Below are positions 31,233 to 38,481 of a stretch of DNA of 64,000 nt, piece after piece (positions within the stretch are counted from its first letter, which is position 1; the number at the start of each line of letters is the position of its first letter). The notes beneath the pieces are model-generated. The model was given only the letters and a program-made list of their open reading frames with translations. It searched no databases and was not told the origin of the DNA. The DNA is from Candidatus Thorarchaeota archaeon (lineage in GTDB: Archaea; Asgardarchaeota; Thorarchaeia; Thorarchaeales; Thorarchaeaceae), in assembly GCA_046482545.1 (NCBI GenBank), contig JAWOEX010000021.1, positions 32,001 to 96,000 on the forward strand. Reading direction: 5' to 3'. The translations under genes and the position numbers were made by a program.

Positions 31233-32315
31233 CTAGTAGCTTCGTTGGACAAGGAATTCTGACATATCAATGAAGAAATTCTTGTAGTCTTCATCAAATG
31301 CTGGTTCTGCGAGGTCAAGAGCCTCTTGCCCAGCATCGAGAAGCTCGTTCATTCTGTTTTCTGCTGCTTCAAGGGCACCAGTATCCACAAAGATATCCTT
31401 GACCTCTTGAACTTGCTCTGCAGACATGTCAGGTGCTCCAAGAAGATTTTCAAGGCGTTGTCGTTTGTCTGAATTCGCTCTTCGGAATGCTTCTAGAACC
31501 AGCATGGTTCTTTTCCCCTCACGTATATCACCATCTGTTGGCTTGCCAGTAACTTCTTCATCACCGAATGAGCCCAAAATATCATCCTGAATCTGAAAGG
31601 CTTGGCCCACCTTCACCCCAAAGTTGCTCAGGGCCTTCATCTGTGATTCTGAAGCTCCTGCAATGGCTGCACCAATAAGAAGAGAATTCTCGAATAGGAT
31701 GGCTGTCTTCAGCCTTATCATTTCAAGATAGGTTTCAGGAGAAGGGTTATGACTTCCAACCATATGCATTTCCAGAAGAACACCATCAACCAAGCCCTGG
31801 TATGCAGTCTGATAGTAATGCAAACACTTCGTGCTCACTTCTGGAGAAAGATTCGCGGCTGTGATCGTTTGAGCTCCTATGTTGAGTAATGAATCACCAC
31901 CGATTATCGCCATTGTCATACCGAAGTGTTCTGCTTTCTTCTGAATGTCCTTCACCTCATTCTTGTACCAATCACGATAAAGAGCATGGAATGTGGGGCC
32001 CCCACGACGCGTTTCATCATTATCAATCAAATCATCATGAAGAAGCGAACCGTTGTGAAGAAACTCCACGGAACATGCTGCAAGATAGAGATGCTCCACT
32101 TCGTTCCGTTCCTTAATCGCCTTGTAACCGGTAGAGACAAGAATGGGGCGCAGTCGTTTACCGCCGCGCATCATGTATTCTTTCACATGACCATAGTACT
32201 TTCTGTGAACGTCACCGAGTCTACTGACCTCCTCGATTCTTGAATCCAAGTACTCTTCCAAGGCTTCATTTACCAATTCATATTCGGTATCCACAATCTC
32301 TTGATAGCCTGTCAA
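31233..32315 (-). CDS. Polyprenyl (geranylgeranyl) diphosphate synthase
   Basis: GGKRLRP, LLHDDLID...RRG, KTA, FQIQDD, GDIREGK. Confidence 0.92.
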   Translation of the reverse strand: MTGYQEIVDTEYELVNEALEEYLDSRIEEVSRLGDVHRKYYGHVKEYMMRGGKRLRPILVSTGYKAIKERNEVEHLYLAACSVEFLHNGSLLHDDLIDNDETRRGGPTFHALYRDWYKNEVKDIQKKAEHFGMTMAIIGGDSLLNIGAQTITAANLSPEVSTKCLHYYQTAYQGLVDGVLLEMHMVGSHNPSPETYLEMIRLKTAILFENSLLIGAAIAGASESQMKALSNFGVKVGQAFQIQDDILGSFGDEEVTGKPTDGDIREGKRTMLVLEAFRRANSDKRQRLENLLGAPDMSAEQVQEVKDIFVDTGALEAAENRMNELLDAGQEALDLAEPAFDEDYKNFFIDMSEFLVQRSY

Positions 32316-32507
32316 GGTCGCTCCTCCGCACTTGATACTCTGGATTCAGATAATTCCTCCTTTTTAGCATTTCTCAATCTGTCGAAGTACATTACAACAT
32401 TAAGCTTAGTCTATGAAAGGGCAATGGAGATGTCGAAGCGAATTCAGACGAGTCGAAAAGGCATCAAGATTAGGCTTATTTGCCTAGTTTTACCCATACA
32501 TCGTGAT

Positions 32508-33947
32508 ATGAAAACAGTACCCTCTCGAATTCTTCTGGCTATGATTCTCACCATGATTGTGACAGCTGGTGTATCGACATTTCCAGTAAGAGCGGTAGGA
32601 GAATACAAGCTTGTCCAAATCGATCCAAGTAATCATGTCCCAGACTATTATGCGGTTGAAATCCCCTGGTTTCAACAAGAAAACAGTATATCATGTGGGC
32701 CAGCTTGCCTCAAAATGGTTTTCGCTAAGCATGATTGGACAATTATCGAAGAAGAGATTCAGCAAGCCGCTAACATGAAGCCATCTCATGGTGGGACTTT
32801 GACGACTGATATGGTCAGAGCTGCACATTTCAGCAACAGGAGTACAGCCCTTGATAATGCAAGTCTTCGCGGTTACACATCCAAACCTTGTGGAAGTGAT
32901 TCAGTGGGCTCACGACCAACCGACGAAAACAAGGTCGATATGCTCAAACAATTCTTGCTTCAGGAACAAAGCCCCATACTCTTGATGTGGTACACCGTAG
33001 CTCACAATTACGGTCATTACAGGATACTGCGAGCATACGATGATAGATCAGAAACTCTCTACTTTGCTGATCCTATGGGCTACAATGCCACCCTTGGAGT
33101 GAATTGGACCCTGCCCTATGATGAGTTCATCAACGACTGGTGGTCATATAGCGGCTATTGGTTGCAAGTCATTTCTGATTGGAATATCGAGATATCTGTA
33201 AATGAGTCGGTATCTGAGCCATCAAGTTATGCCGTGAATGCAACAATCAGTACAGGGATAGAACAGAATCTTAGAGACCCACAATCAATTCTTCGGGCCT
33301 GTTCAGCTAGACTAAACCTTCCAAACGGCTGGGAACTGAACTCGGGAACCAGTGAGACACCAATTGAATTCAACCAGCAAGGTGTCACGTCCGTTCGATG
33401 GGAAATAACTCAACAGGATAGAAGTGAGCAAGGCAATATCACGGTAACTGCTAGGGGCCGTATTGGCGGACAAACTGCATCCTATGACTCATACGAAGAC
33501 CTGATCTGCACATCAGAGGGCGTAGACATTTTTGCGCTTCAGAAACCATCCCTTGGGAAGATTAACATAGGGCATACAGATGAGGGCTTAGAAGTTCTAG
33601 CGAGCATAAGAAATCCAAATCTTGTCAGAAGCTGTAAGCTGCTTTGGAGAAATAATCCCACCAATTGGAAAACAGTACCTATGGAAGCAGTTGATTCAGA
33701 GTCGTATTCTGCTAGTATGACAATTCCTGAGCCGAGAATGGAGAAGAATGAATCGGTTCAAATCAGGTTCGTTCTTACTGATGAGAACAGTGAATTGACA
33801 CAGACAGCAGCATATGAGTACAGATTCTATGAGTCGCCTGTTACAGTCGTCCCTATGATAATAGGAGGTGTAGTAATAGTGACTGTTGTCGCAATAATCG
33901 TACTACTACATCAAATCGGACTTCTTAGACTGAATGCACAAGAGTAG
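32508..33947 (+). CDS. Membrane-anchored C39-like cysteine peptidase
   Basis: Signal peptide MKTVPSRILLAMIL, QQENSISCGPAC, GHY, ADP, C-terminal TM helix (ORF track starts at 32301). Confidence 0.75.
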   Translation: MKTVPSRILLAMILTMIVTAGVSTFPVRAVGEYKLVQIDPSNHVPDYYAVEIPWFQQENSISCGPACLKMVFAKHDWTIIEEEIQQAANMKPSHGGTLTTDMVRAAHFSNRSTALDNASLRGYTSKPCGSDSVGSRPTDENKVDMLKQFLLQEQSPILLMWYTVAHNYGHYRILRAYDDRSETLYFADPMGYNATLGVNWTLPYDEFINDWWSYSGYWLQVISDWNIEISVNESVSEPSSYAVNATISTGIEQNLRDPQSILRACSARLNLPNGWELNSGTSETPIEFNQQGVTSVRWEITQQDRSEQGNITVTARGRIGGQTASYDSYEDLICTSEGVDIFALQKPSLGKINIGHTDEGLEVLASIRNPNLVRSCKLLWRNNPTNWKTVPMEAVDSESYSASMTIPEPRMEKNESVQIRFVLTDENSELTQTAAYEYRFYESPVTVVPMIIGGVVIVTVVAIIVLLHQIGLLRLNAQE

Positions 33948-34000: not shown

Positions 34001-34939
34001 TTATACGTAGAGTCTTCCCCGTAAGACAGTTACAGCCTTACCGCTGACCTTGACTTGGTTAATCTTCTCTTCATTACCTCTGATTTCCACGTACACCTTC
34101 CCTGGACGGCCAACAAAGTCTCCTTGTTCAATTACTATGCTGGTAACTGGATTAGAAGAATCCATCATACCGTATTTTACCATGTATGACGCCATCCCAC
34201 CCGCTGCAGACCCGCTTACTGGATCCTCGGGAACACCTAGACCAGGCGCAAAATGACGGGCATGAGCATCAGAAGTTTCCTCCCTTGCATCACGGGTGAA
34301 AACCTGAATAGAAACGTAATCGGAATCCTTGCGTAGCTCCTGAAGAGCTTTCCAGTCAGGACGAATTCTCTCAAGAGATCTGTATGTATTGACAGGAATC
34401 ATCAGGTGAGGAGTCCCAGTCGAGACAGTTTGAATGGGCTTCGGGGACATGATATCTGCAAGAGTCAAGCCAAGGGCGTTTGCATATTCCTTCGGATCGT
34501 AGCTTGTCAAGAATTGTGGGGGTTGATGCGTAATCTGAATTTCATAAACCTGAGAGCGTTCGTTTTGAACCACCTCTACTTCAAAGACACCTGTATTGGT
34601 TTCAAACGTAAACATTGTGATGTGATTCGTGGCCTGAGCGATGCCTTCACTCAGCAATGCATTAAACGCAGCTACAGTTGCATGACCTGAGAAATTGATT
34701 TCACGGTCTGGTGTCATGTACCTGAACCGATAATCGGCTATATCAGAATCCGATACGTAGACTGTTTCCCTTACATTGAACTCCCGCGAGATTTTGTGCA
34801 TCATTTCCCTGCCAAGCTCATCAGCACCTAGAATGACTGTTGCAGGATTGCCTCCGAAGGGCACGTCGGTAAATGCATCAACATGCACAACATCGAATTC
34901 ATATTCGTGAGACATCTTATGGGCATCTCCTTGAAGCAT
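34001..34939 (-). CDS. PhzF-family epimerase/isomerase
   Basis: VDAFTDVPFGGNPA, EINFSGHAT, EDPVSGSA, EQG..VGRPG. Confidence 0.9.
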   Translation of the reverse strand: MLQGDAHKMSHEYEFDVVHVDAFTDVPFGGNPATVILGADELGREMMHKISREFNVRETVYVSDSDIADYRFRYMTPDREINFSGHATVAAFNALLSEGIAQATNHITMFTFETNTGVFEVEVVQNERSQVYEIQITHQPPQFLTSYDPKEYANALGLTLADIMSPKPIQTVSTGTPHLMIPVNTYRSLERIRPDWKALQELRKDSDYVSIQVFTRDAREETSDAHARHFAPGLGVPEDPVSGSAAGGMASYMVKYGMMDSSNPVTSIVIEQGDFVGRPGKVYVEIRGNEEKINQVKVSGKAVTVLRGRLYV

Positions 34940-35354
34940 TATTATTCAGTACGCTAATTAACGATTCCATTGGCCTCATAGTATGAATGAAGCGGAACAA
35001 GAACAATCATTCATCATTTCCAGCAGAGAGAGAATATGAAACCTAAACCATGATTGAATGAGATACAACAGCGGCATGCGAATATCAGCATCAAGCGGAT
35101 TTTCATTCGTCTCGTCAACCTGAAATAACTGACTACTGATGTCTAGTAAAATCCAAGGGTTGGATATGACCTGATTATGAAACAGCCGCTCAGCATCTCT
35201 TGTTCTTATGTATTCGAGTCCTACATCAGGCTAATTCTCATCATTTTGACTCGCATCGTATTCGTTGTGTCAGATAATACTGTTTGCTGAACTGTGGTGC
35301 TGAACAAGCGTCCGGATGCAAAAAGGGGAATCTAGGCAATCAGGCCGCACAACA

Positions 35355-35362
35355 TTATTATT
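35355..35362 (+). promoter_or_regulatory. Putative TATA box for the structured RNA
   Basis: TTATTATT about 25 nt upstream of GGGCC at 35380, where pairing begins. Confidence 0.45.
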
Positions 35363-35379
35363 TGTAGACTATGTGCTAA

Positions 35380-36180
35380 GGGCCAAGTGGGTATCCGTCT
35401 CCACGGAGCACGGAGGTTGAGGGTGTTGAATTTGCCTTCACCTAACAGAGAACAGCAATCATCGGACACAGGGTATCAAGTCCTGGAGAGTCCGCGGCTG
35501 TTCACCATGTCCAGACGGACCTCCTCAGCTACGGTGACAAGGCTGAGGTGGGTGATCATGACCACGCCGTGGCAAGAACTGTGGAAGACCTCGCTGTCAC
35601 CGGGAGTGATGATCCGGGATGACGACAGGAGGAGGAAGCCAGGACCGCGGGAGGAATCCCATTCCGATGAACGTAGACAAAGCCCTGCTAACTCACGGGC
35701 CTACGGGTACCTTGGGGGCGGTGACGCTGGCAGGGGAAGGCCGGAACACAGAAGTTTCAAACAGTGTACGCAACTGTAAGAAACAGGTCATCTGGAGCTC
35801 CTCACTAGGAGGGAGCTGGCGGGACATAGATTGCGAAGAATGTTCACCTAGGGGCACTCGGCTGCTAACGCAGCTGAGTATGTTGAACTCTTCGATAGGA
35901 ACACCGTTGCCCGCCAGAGTTCCCAGAGAACCTGTAGTAGTCATATCAATTAGACTCATTGGCGACAACTCCACAGTTGCCGGTTTTCGAGGGCTCCAGG
36001 TTCACCTTACAATCTGTTTCTTGTAATTGAGTGAGAGCAACTTCGTAAGACTTCTGTACTCCACCTAGTCGATAATGAAGAGCTGACTGCGTCAAGTAAG
36101 CTCTCAATGCATTTGAAGGTCTGGATCAAGAAAAGTAGGAAGCAGTACTTAGATGCTCACCGGGAAGGCCAGAAAGAGAG
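35380..36180 (+). ncRNA. Large structured RNA candidate of unknown family (one RNA or two adjacent ~320-nt RNAs); 3' end uncertain
   Basis: Many nested long-range helices with G-U pairs on the + strand; no convincing ORF. Confidence 0.6.
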
Positions 36181-36229
36181 TGCAGATGCAAAGAATCCAA
36201 TTGAATTTGTAGATAATAGAAACAAAGCA

Positions 36230-36358
36230 AAAAGGTGGCGACCACGCGATCGTGGTAGGAGGGGGGAGTTTCGTAATTGAGGGCATGTAACGAAAAACTA
36301 GACGCGTGATCGCCTCAATTCATTCATGCCATTCCAACTACGTTTTCTTTCCTATCAC
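36230..36358 (-). ncRNA. Small RNA candidate, copy 1
   Basis: Own TATA (TTTAATAA on - strand, ~36382-36389), 52-nt core shared with copy 2, 12-bp closing stem, U-rich 3' end. Confidence 0.55.
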
Positions 36359-36634
36359 GAATTTTGTATACCGCCGACTTCTTATTAAACTTCCGATTGT
36401 AGACTAGTTTAGTAGACTTTAACTTCTATGGAACTCGGTTACTCTTTCGAAGTATCAAGTCTGAGTTTTTTGGTATTCGAAAATATTGGGAAAGAAGATG
36501 CATGAAAGTCTACAAAAGCGTAACCAAAGTCGAAGCCAGAAGAACTTCTAGAGGCATAGAAGGTGACGAGTGCGCGGATATAGTGGTAGGAGGGGGGAGT
36601 TTCGTAATTGAGGGCATGTAACGAAAAACTAGAC
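36252..36634. repeat. Two identical 52-nt direct repeats (36252-36303 and 36583-36634), 331 nt apart
   Basis: GTGGTAGGAGGGGGGAGTTTCGTAATTGAGGGCATGTAACGAAAAACTAGAC occurs twice. Confidence 0.95.
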
Positions 36635-36684
36635 CACGCACTCGCCTTGTTTATTCGTCATACCCTATGTTTTCCACCAATCAC
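36558..36684 (-). ncRNA. Small RNA candidate, copy 2
   Basis: Same promoter block (GACTTCTTATTAA 36701-36713), same core, different but pairing 11-bp closing stem. Confidence 0.55.
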
Positions 36685-36831
36685 AGGGTTCTAGAAAATG
36701 GACTTCTTATTAACTTTTGTAAAGCAGACCATTTTAACTCGGGTAAGACAAAGATGAATCAGAATGGGTTTAATCTATCAAGATTGTTCTCAAATGATGG
36801 AATGGGGGGAACGCCCCTAGAGTATTCATTC

Positions 36832-38481
36832 TTACTCGTAGGGGTGTGAGATGCTTTCCTCTTCCATTTTGTCAGGGCGACTGCGTTTCCTCCACTCCTT
36901 TATTGGCATACTGAACTTGTCCTCAACCCTGTCACGATGGATAGTATTCATAGTGCAGAATGGGATGATTCTTCCGTCAGGAACACTGTAATTGATATCA
37001 CAGTGCTGCACACGCTCCAAGTCGAAATTGTACGGATCTTGGAAGTGCATCATACCAATCATGATAATGCGGTGCATAAACTCAGATAGTGAGTCATAAT
37101 CGCCTTTCTTCAGAAAAGCACCAAGCAAATCTTTCATCAATCCTTTTCGCTTGACATGGCGCAGTCCTGCGGCTAGTTTGGCTTTGGCCCGCTTGCCGGC
37201 AGCGAACTTCCCATCCGCATAGAGATTGCAGATGCCTTCCATAAGCTCAATGAATTTATCCACATCGATAAGATTGGTAATCGGCTCGTATCTCCCATCT
37301 TCATTGATGTAAATGAAGGTAGCCATACCACAGGCAAAGTGAGCACTAAGTTCCAATTGTGGAGTTCCTTTCATGAGCCCCATTGCTCGACCGATAGGCA
37401 TCATTCCCGGCACCGGATACCATTCTGATGCGGGAATTTTGCCATCAGTCTGTTCTTCGATTTTGTGAATCACATCGGGGATTGTTATTCGCATTTCTTG
37501 CCGCTTCTCATAATCAATCCGTCCTGTGATGCTGACAGGCTGGAAGTTCACACAACGAACAACGTCCTGGTTCTCCACAGCAAACTCGATAATATCGCCA
37601 ACCTGATCATCGTTTACACCTCGTACAACTGTAGGGACAAGGACAATCGAATCTAGGCCCACCTCTCTGCAGTTTTCGATGGCCTGCTTCTTCAACGGCA
37701 GCAGGTTCATCCCTCGTGCCGCTTCATAGGGCTCGGGTGTCACACCATCAAACTGCATGTAGATTGTCGACAGACCAGCTTCTTCGAGCTCTTTGGTATA
37801 TTCAAGTGATTTACCAAGGCGTATGGCATTGGTTGCAATCTCAGTATGCTTGAAACCAACGTCTTTGGCCCAGCGAAGATACTGTGGAAGATGCTTGCTG
37901 ACGGTAGGTTCGCCCCCTGCAAATTGAAGTGCTGGAGTTGGAACAGGCTTGTTGCTTCGAAGGTTCTTCATCATTTCTAGAACCTCTTCAGGAGTTGGCT
38001 CATACACTTCACCAGATTCTGCGGCGTGAGCGAAACAAATGGGGCATCGGAGGTTACACCTATTGGTGACATCAAGAAGAGCAAGTGCAGTATGCGATTT
38101 GTGCTCTGGGCACTGACCACAATCTTCTGGACAACCGTGTACAGTCTCTGTGCGAGGGTTATCAAGGCCTACTGTTTTGTACCACCACTTCTGGGCTTTC
38201 CTGAACATGTCGGCATCGCCCCAGTAGACATCTATAAACTCTCCATGTTTCTCACATTCTTTCTTGTACATAACCTTGCCATCTTCTTCGTAAAGAGTAG
38301 CATCAATGACATTAACCTCATCATCTGCTAACAGGCAATCAGGGCATATGGATTGGGTAGTATATGGTAGCTGACGTATCTCGTGTTTCTCAACGTGAAA
38401 TCGTGAGATATCATGCTCTTCATCTTCGAAAGGAAGCTCACTAGAAGGAACTGGTTCAATATCTGGTTCCATGAAAATCAA
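36832..38481 (-). CDS. tes: Radical SAM tetraether lipid synthase (Tes/GDGT-MAS, MJ0619 family)
   Basis: N-terminal CPDC...C..HG, CPEDCGQCPEH, CNLRCPIC, C-terminal MHFQDPYNFDLERV...C...DGRIIPFC. Confidence 0.85.
   Translation of the reverse strand: MIFMEPDIEPVPSSELPFEDEEHDISRFHVEKHEIRQLPYTTQSICPDCLLADDEVNVIDATLYEEDGKVMYKKECEKHGEFIDVYWGDADMFRKAQKWWYKTVGLDNPRTETVHGCPEDCGQCPEHKSHTALALLDVTNRCNLRCPICFAHAAESGEVYEPTPEEVLEMMKNLRSNKPVPTPALQFAGGEPTVSKHLPQYLRWAKDVGFKHTEIATNAIRLGKSLEYTKELEEAGLSTIYMQFDGVTPEPYEAARGMNLLPLKKQAIENCREVGLDSIVLVPTVVRGVNDDQVGDIIEFAVENQDVVRCVNFQPVSITGRIDYEKRQEMRITIPDVIHKIEEQTDGKIPASEWYPVPGMMPIGRAMGLMKGTPQLELSAHFACGMATFIYINEDGRYEPITNLIDVDKFIELMEGICNLYADGKFAAGKRAKAKLAAGLRHVKRKGLMKDLLGAFLKKGDYDSLSEFMHRIIMIGMMHFQDPYNFDLERVQHCDINYSVPDGRIIPFCTMNTIHRDRVEDKFSMPIKEWRKRSRPDKMEEESISHPYE

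Follow-up and report, generated by a model that had tools for sequence, protein, structure and literature searches.

Asgard archaea are the closest prokaryotic relatives of eukaryotes, and to our knowledge almost nothing is known of their non-coding RNAs. In the 3.05-Mb assembly of a member of the Thorarchaeota we studied a stretch of 64,000 nucleotides (hereinafter the window, whose positions are used throughout), in which the space between two minus-strand protein-coding genes harbors a 52-nt segment that is present twice without a single difference. The upstream neighbor (36832-38481) codes for a 549-aa radical SAM protein with an HMPTM-type zinc ribbon, and the downstream neighbor (34001-34939) for a PhzF-family protein; both were assigned with Pfam and serve here as context only. 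Beyond the latter gene, the plus strand encodes at 32301-33947 a 548-aa protein with a weak peptidase C39-like domain. The question raised by this locus is what kind of element would preserve such a core in duplicate, and whether it is RNA, DNA or an encoded peptide that is being preserved.

Strand and architecture of the tandem pair

The core occupies positions 36252-36303 and 36583-36634, as stated in the initial annotation, which took the two copies for paralogous small-RNA genes, and it occurs exactly twice in the window, where 0 matches are expected by chance. The copies of the core are 331 nt from each other and have different closing stems around them; a promoter-like block, repeated in direct orientation at 36376 and 36701, shows greater divergence. 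The combination of the core repeat with the diverged repeat of the promoter block indicates that a unit of ~330 bp was duplicated in tandem and subsequently diverged everywhere except in the core. Read on the minus strand, copy 1 is closed by a stem of 12 bp (36314-36303 with 36248-36237; 11 Watson-Crick pairs and one G-U), in which the 5' arm GGCGAUCACGCG at 36303-36314 pairs with the 3' arm at 36237-36248. Copy 2 is closed by a stem of 13 bp (36646-36634 with 36577-36565; 11 Watson-Crick pairs and two G-U), in which the 5' arm GGCGAGUGCGUGG at 36634-36646 pairs with the 3' arm at 36565-36577; both 3' arms are defined by pairing and covariation. When the plus strand is read instead, the G-U positions of both stems become C-A mismatches. 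The earlier description of flanks that differ and nevertheless pair is thus borne out. Between the arms lie the conserved loops (36249-36302 in copy 1 and 36578-36633 in copy 2), which comprise in the same arrangement a U-tract, box 1 (ACAUGCCCUCA), an inner 6-bp hairpin and box 2 (CUCCCCCCUCCUACCA), with 52 nt identical between the copies.

An alignment of 52 distinct sequences of the subtype found in the window (type A) provided the helix statistics. In this alignment the 14-bp closing helix is 96.6% paired, with changes on both sides at 7 of the 14 pairs; none of 500 shuffles was as good, and sliding the partner segment lowered the pairing to 31-59%. With the C-rich strand taken as the RNA, the helix contains 88 G-U as against 4 A-C cells, and the 96.6% pairing compares with 84.9% when the G-rich strand is taken, so that the minus strand of the window is identified as the RNA strand, in agreement with the minus-strand transcription and covarying closing stems that had been proposed. 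In subtypes B and C, which have no leader, the terminal helix is predicted to have 16-19 pairs, of which 8-9 show compensatory changes, and it contains many G-U; it begins with G(G)UGG and ends with CCAC(C). The inner hairpin of 6 bp (UUUCGU/ACGAAA) to which the initial annotation drew attention is present and invariant in type A, and hence uninformative there, but it is missing in type B and absent from the other subtypes, and so is no defining feature of the family. Some copies carry extra hairpins at two positions of the loop. Common to all subtypes, and unpaired, are the U-tract, box 1, a variable linker, box 2 with a C-run that varies in length from 5 to 8, and a tail ACC(U).

In BLAST searches the core (53 nt) is 100% identical in ~25 genomes of many genera, across which the orthologs of TFB are only 75-80% identical; ~45 nt of the loop are invariant across genera, and the helix alone drifts. 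The 3' tail CCACCUYCU, of which CCACCU is nearly invariant in the type A alignments, resembles the 3' end of 16S rRNA. Both the CCUCCU of box 2 and the CACCU of the tail fall outside the covarying helix, which corroborates the exposed C-rich tract of anti-Shine-Dalgarno (anti-SD) appearance noted earlier. The plus-strand ORFs of 9-10 codons that had also been noted found no such backing, as the lengths of the C-run and of the linker vary out of frame. A plus-strand gene for a small peptide or RiPP precursor, close to the radical SAM and C39-like genes, was likewise rejected, since it would lie on the wrong strand and be subject to the same out-of-frame length variation.

Each copy also has a candidate promoter of its own. 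On the minus strand the duplicated block reads as a TATA-like (G)TTTAATAAG / GTTAATAAG, the promoter of copy 1 being GTTTAATAAG at 36381-36390 and that of copy 2 GTTAATAAG at 36706-36714, with TATA cores at 36389-36382 and 36713-36707, respectively. The duplicated block in front of a shared GTGAT was thus correctly recognized at the outset, but the GUGAU begins 21-22 nt past the end of the block and not 17-18 nt; it lies ~23-24 nt past the last A of the TATA core, a distance that fits the normal TATA-to-start spacing of archaea. From these positions the transcripts are predicted to run from ~36358 to ~36225 in copy 1 and from ~36684 to ~36550 in copy 2, each starting at the GUGAU (at its G in copy 2). 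Across the family, 149 of 215 distinct copies are preceded on the RNA strand by a motif of the same type (YTTAWTARG and near variants), compared with 13/215 in downstream regions and 11/215 at the promoter position of the opposite strand, and its spacing is fixed. In subtypes B and C it forms a sharp peak 65-69 nt before the loop anchor, i.e. ~24-27 nt before the first base of the helix, from which it would follow that these RNAs start at the helix itself; the distance to the anchor in type A is mostly 80-83 or 101-108 nt, corresponding to a leader of 25-50 nt.

At the 3' ends both copies of the window are rich in pyrimidines and U (ACCUUUUUGCUUUGUUUC and ACCUUCUAUGCCUCU), as had been described. 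The tail of copy 1 at 36215-36236, read from the sequence as ACCUUUUUGCUUUGUUUC, contains oligo-U and is terminator-like, and the pyrimidine-rich, anti-SD-like tail of copy 2 (ACCUUCU..., 36550-36564) is the probable zone of termination; a U- or pyrimidine-rich tract is the usual form of an archaeal terminator. The promoter, the terminator-like tract and the strand-specific G-U pairs together suggest that both copies are transcribed, and support the view that the window holds two independent genes for a non-coding RNA of ~135 nt read from the minus strand.

The leaders of the two copies (36315-36358 in copy 1 and 36647-36684 in copy 2) are G-rich, like those of type A in general, and have the look of a degenerate antisense image of the loop, with GGUAGG, GGUGGG or GGAGG followed by GGGCAU or GGGA; in copy 1 the antisense match to the core is extensive. 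The alternative pairing of the 5' part with the core, raised by the initial annotation for copy 2, reflects a real complementarity that is stronger in copy 1 (-34.3 kcal/mol for the leader-loop duplex, z = -5 against shuffles) than in copy 2, and in the minimum free energy fold of the full copy 1 transcript this pairing replaces the closing helix. Over 55 type A copies the leader-loop duplex has a mean of -20.5 kcal/mol, as against -11.2 kcal/mol in downstream control segments, and only 31% of these copies beat composition-matched shuffles by 2 sd; moreover, in several clades the leader forms a covarying hairpin of its own (e.g. GGAGGG/CCCUCC and GGUAGG/CCUAUC). In view of these last two observations, masking of the loop in cis by the leader is best described as possible under the folding models.

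Distribution and genomic context of the family

A third, diverged member of the family is encoded on another contig of the host genome (G000:C24:24070-24189, ~1463-1582 of locus L003), with a 12-nt hairpin inserted in its loop and a closing stem of its own. BLAST searches against 60 relatives recovered the element in every one of the 36 same-family genomes, each of which gave 1-15 matches. A covariance model derived from 101 copies detected 1-9 copies per genome in 26 of the 26 sampled same-family genomes and also in the one genome sampled from a sister family of the same order (1/1), so that both the search for further copies of the core and the model reveal a multi-copy family. The model scores copy 2 of the window at 107.8 bits and copy 1 at 98.4 bits. 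One other genome of the genus also has a tandem pair, in which copy 2 carries two extra hairpins, and genera other than that of the window have a single copy at the radical SAM/PhzF locus. Outside this range the model gave one weak match (E ~1e-3) among 123 other Asgard genomes from 25 other families, a near-absence that means 'not found in those searched' and stops short of proven absence. In pattern scans of public genomes and metagenomes, the named ones among the matches listed are from Thorarchaeota, with one labelled Hermodarchaeota and several labelled only Promethearchaeota or uncultured archaeon. When transcript-sized metagenome contigs were sought, only genomic contigs of at least 1.1 kb were present among the matches listed. 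Judged by these searches, this is a Thorarchaeota-specific, multi-copy ('sibling') sRNA family that is as yet uncatalogued.

The main type A copy sits between the radical SAM gene and the PhzF-family gene, with all of them on one strand; the radical SAM protein cluster is found upstream of 51 family copies and the PhzF-family gene downstream of 40, usually ~100-140 nt away. The paralogs fill at least six conserved, functionally unrelated neighborhoods, with other slots next to genes for OsmC, VWA, a PAS histidine kinase, a methyltransferase, TldD and others, and they are often divergent from or convergent with the flanking genes. In the neighborhoods of the copies examined there is no RT, Cas or transposase gene near any family copy, and no conserved protein gene accompanies the RNA genes. 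The conserved and unrelated slots, the divergent or convergent placement and the lack of RT, Cas and transposase genes suggest that the members are independent, vertically inherited RNA genes.

In the window, the gap between the RNA genes and the PhzF-family gene contains a dispersed repeat of ~320 bp with sharp ends (35475-35797), 440 nt from the sRNA genes. A BLAST search with the gap (34940-36230) returned 72 matches in the host genome, all of which, except for the self-match, fall within the dispersed-repeat segment, at 70-93% identity; they include full-length copies as well as fragments, and one copy is located ~1.9 kb from the third family member. The repeat is present in 28 of 40 sampled same-family genomes, with at least 10 matches in some of them. 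It lacks terminal inverted repeats, matches nothing in Rfam or Pfam and gives no fold signal (z -0.9 / -0.6). Its presence in the gap accounts for the spacing of 1.3 kb between the sRNA and PhzF genes here, as against ~100 nt in relatives. A neighboring 'large RNA' was considered as a partner of the sRNAs and rejected, as it proved to be this ~320-bp repeat, with no fold signal and no fixed linkage to the sRNA genes.

A match to a known Rfam family, named at the outset as a ground for refutation, was not obtained: searches of Rfam 15 left the elements unmatched even at E <= 10 (1.1 kb searched), and on the whole window at the gathering threshold they report only a tRNA (tRNA-Gln). On other contigs of the host genome there are matches above cut-off for 5S rRNA, RNase P RNA and SRP RNA, which argues against the element being a divergent form of a universal RNA. 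A tRNA or tRNA-like identity was dismissed because ARAGORN and Rfam find only the tRNA-Gln in the window and because the sRNA tail is ACCU and not ACCA; 18 of the 21 ARAGORN tRNA genes of the host genome end in an encoded 3' CCA, mostly as ACCA. A C/D box sRNA was discarded in the absence of both the C box RUGAUGA and the D box CUGA from the conserved core and arms.

Anti-Shine-Dalgarno resemblance and competing explanations

The 16S rRNA gene of the host ends in GAUCACCUCCU. Box 2 of the sRNA contains CCUCCU, and the tail, which reads CCACCUUCU or CCACCUCCU and directly follows the terminal helix as in 16S rRNA, has variants with up to 9/10 matches to GAUCACCUCCU; furthermore, the 8-mer CCUCCUAC is common to the loop and to the end of the 16S gene together with the first two bases of its trailer. 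As regards the rRNA genes themselves, those for 16S (G000:C2:258-1487) and 23S (C2:80561-83864) share a contig but are unlinked, with ~79 kb between them. The full length of the 16S model is matched within only 1,230 nt, the match for 23S has 3,304 nt as against 2,987 positions of its model, and a second, partial 16S is located on another contig (C33:32736-33583).

Potential targets were approached by counting duplexes of -10 kcal/mol or below in the segment from -22 to +1 of 2,625 crudely called gene starts and in mid-gene windows. The real anti-SD, included as a control, gave 237 start windows as against 84 mid-gene windows; the corresponding counts were 180 and 55 for the short form of box 2, 382 and 216 for the full box 2, 163-286 and 92-145 for the tails, and 250 and 186 for box 1. 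The enrichment at start sites is thus of much the same degree as with the real anti-SD and, since CCUCC and CACCU are common to the sRNA and the anti-SD, is no more than the anti-SD core itself predicts. A wider scan (-35 to +20, with a long query) showed no enrichment at starts (-8.87 vs -8.66 kcal/mol, with equal tails), and there was no long perfect target in the host genome apart from the antisense strand of the genes themselves. Against 16S, 23S and 5S rRNA and their flanks the best duplexes were no better than those of shuffled queries, and on this ground an rRNA-directed guide or chaperone was rejected. In the ranking of predicted targets a 146-aa hypothetical protein and AOR precede TFB, which is third and was the only one covered by the comparative test. 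The main TFB gene (G000:C34:63360-64304, with orthologs in L326-L355) has a purine-rich GAGGAGGAGG leader within the genus of the window and AGGUGA in other genera; complementarity is kept in this genus only, elsewhere the pairing is at background level, and the TFB mRNA was accordingly dropped as a conserved target.

The most likely mechanism, to which we would assign a probability of roughly 0.45, is that the members of the family are sibling trans-acting sRNAs that pair with Shine-Dalgarno (SD) regions. A TATA-box promoter would start the transcript, which in type A would open with the G-rich 5' leader; a covarying helix of 12-14 bp formed by distant segments would then hold open an essentially invariant loop of ~55 nt, and would be succeeded by the single-stranded CCACCUYCU tail and a U/pyrimidine-rich stop. 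With the CCUCCU of box 2 and the CACCU of the tail as copies of the two halves of the 16S anti-SD sequence, the RNA would pair in trans with the GGAGG/AGGUG ribosome-binding sites (RBS) of many mRNAs and thereby block or otherwise tune the initiation of translation, and the leader, being a degenerate antisense image of the loop, might mask the loop in cis. A predicted independent transcription unit and an unpaired anti-SD sequence would place the family in the functional class of trans-acting anti-RBS sRNAs. We consider the structure, strand, promoters and distribution of the family, as read from the genomes, to be solid; its function is suggested by these features to be a regulatory one. Of the ~130-nt 'regulatory or guide' sRNA family originally envisaged, the small-RNA family remains, but a role as guide is unlikely, given that the paralogs do not differ in their conserved part.

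SD masking by sibling sRNAs does leave one feature unexplained, namely the invariance of ~45 nt, including box 1 and the U-tract, since masking needs only 5-8 nt; this invariance fits a protein or ribosome partner better. The RNA might accordingly be no base-pairing regulator but the core of a Thorarchaeota-specific housekeeping ribonucleoprotein (RNP), or a mimic of the 16S 3' end with the ribosome, or its factors of maturation or initiation, as partner. We regard this composite alternative as doubtful, though deserving of serious attention in that it would explain both the ~45 single-stranded nucleotides frozen class-wide and the presence of the same loop in all paralogs. Taken alone, its first component is unlikely: here the RNA would be the scaffold of a lineage-specific RNP with a logic like that of Y, vault or 7SK-type RNAs, and the U-tract and C-rich boxes would be binding sites for proteins, e.g. 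an Sm-like protein and a KH-type poly(C) binder. Drift of the helix alone around ~45 invariant nucleotides does imply more constraint than short seed pairing needs, the shared loop makes the paralogs resemble redundant copies of one function rather than different guides, the C-run of 5-8 and the variable linker are as expected of separate protein-binding boxes, and no conserved mRNA target was found (TFB tested). On the other hand, the RNA genes have no conserved protein gene alongside them and no partner protein was identified; no known protein-binding motif (e.g. a K-turn) is visible in the sequence, and protein binding and base-pairing are not mutually exclusive. The other component, a mimic of the (pre-)16S 3' end with a helix followed by CACCUYCU and with CCUCCU followed by AC in the loop, would act as a decoy for Nob1/Dim2-type maturation factors, for initiation factors or for the whole mRNA pool. 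This is distinctly improbable, for while the position of the tail, its 9/10 matches and the shared 8-mer speak in its favor, the matches are short, the 8-mer being CCUCCU with only two additional bases, and no complementarity to rRNA stands out as significant, though a mimic could do without it.

Two further explanations would remove the need for an independent RNA gene, and the genomic context bears on both. The main copy is on the same strand as its neighbors and in most genomes is followed by PhzF after ~100-140 nt and preceded by the radical SAM gene at ~320 nt; this placement would suit a role in cis, as the 5' leader or a riboswitch of PhzF or as a 3' UTR structure of the radical SAM gene. 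Yet each copy has its own TATA at fixed spacing, and PhzF is preceded by a U/Y-rich stop; at least three relatives (L019, L020 and L027) show another TATA-like box (UUAAUUAA) in the interval from the RNA to PhzF, and in the window the 1.3-kb gap with the dispersed repeat separates the two. The other paralogs, moreover, have flanking genes (OsmC, VWA, kinase, methyltransferase) that diverge or converge, with none downstream on the strand of the RNA, and there is no Rfam riboswitch match; with unrelated neighbors, often on the other strand, and a promoter and stop for each copy, we rejected the riboswitch or cis leader as a class and consider a cis-acting role very improbable. Hardly credible at all is a feature of the DNA itself, be it the ends of a MITE or transposon, a protein-binding site or a plus-strand G-quadruplex motif, notwithstanding the multiple copies, the inverted-repeat flanks, the G-rich plus strand and the true dispersed repeat 440 nt away. 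From one copy to the next the inverted repeats change, with covariation and with G-U pairs specific to one strand, which selection at the DNA level does not yield; each paralog keeps its chromosomal neighborhood across genera, the copy number is low (1-9), and the copies have neither terminal inverted repeats of fixed sequence nor target-site duplications, with transposase, RT and Cas genes absent from their surroundings. MITE or transposon ends were rejected on the same evidence of differing, covarying arms, conserved synteny for each paralog and lack of target-site duplications, a result that agrees with the RNA genes proposed initially.

Significance and comparison with known systems

The elements studied here constitute a class-wide, multi-copy family of predicted RNA genes with an invariance like that of rRNA, a clear structure, defined promoters and an anti-SD look. 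If masking of the RBS by these sibling sRNAs is true, they would represent the first proposal of a global riboregulator of translation in Asgard archaea, and the archaeal equivalent of the sibling sRNAs of bacteria; if instead the RNP scaffold or the mimic of the 16S end is true, the family would point to a lineage-specific ribosome or RNA biology. In either case the covariance model permits annotation of the family in all Thorarchaeota genomes and its look-up in sediment metatranscriptomes.

Several known systems offer points of comparison. The archaeal H/ACA guide sRNAs are similar in having a hairpin, sometimes two, in which a large internal region is unpaired, with a conserved trinucleotide immediately 3' of the basal helix. 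In the Thorarchaeota family, however, this trinucleotide is ACC and not ACA, the tail being ACC(U) in nearly all type A copies and AAC or ACC in other subtypes, and there is no tandem G-A motif (K-turn/K-loop) in the loop or the inner hairpin. The 14-bp basal helix uses all 14 nt of the 14-16 nt distance from the box, leaving no 3' guide strand at the place where the H/ACA pocket requires one, and the paralogs do not differ in their unpaired part, whereas the members of a guide family would; an H/ACA sRNA was rejected for these reasons. The RsaE/RoxS-type sRNAs of Firmicutes pair through unpaired C-rich motifs with the G-rich SD regions of several mRNAs; these bacterial RNAs carry a short CCCC motif in the loops of small hairpins and end in a Rho-independent terminator, and we take them not to be homologous to the Thorarchaeota family.

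Among archaea the closest systems are sRNA41 and sRNA154 of Methanosarcina mazei, which are intergenic, have their own promoters and mask ribosome-binding sites in trans with unpaired anti-RBS loops (PMC5867862). The intergenic position, the promoter and the unpaired anti-RBS sequence are common to both sides of the comparison, but sRNA41 and sRNA154 are single-copy and genus-restricted, with targets shown experimentally (PMC5867862), whereas the Thorarchaeota family is multi-copy and class-wide, with a far stronger invariance of sequence and no relation in sequence or architecture. The cuckoo RNAs of Alphaproteobacteria (RSs0680/CcsR, alpha-r14) are multi-copy sibling sRNAs, sometimes in tandem clusters, which occupy conserved intergenic neighborhoods; their stems drift by compensatory change, and the sole conserved sequence is an unpaired C-rich, anti-SD-like loop motif, with each of 2-4 adjacent small hairpins displaying CCUCCUCCC (PMC4615179). 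Membership in this family was rejected, as CCUCCUCCC is absent, box 2 being CUCCCCCCUCCUACCA, and as one long helix with a single large loop takes the place of the small hairpins; the two families have no similarity in sequence or model. The Thorarchaeota family differs from these bacterial RNAs in being archaeal and in combining one long terminal helix with a loop of 45-55 nt, two other boxes and an anti-SD-like 3' tail. In logic, the cuckoo RNAs are nonetheless its closest analogue, with sibling copies, clusters, kept neighborhoods, compensatory stems and an anti-SD-like loop on both sides.
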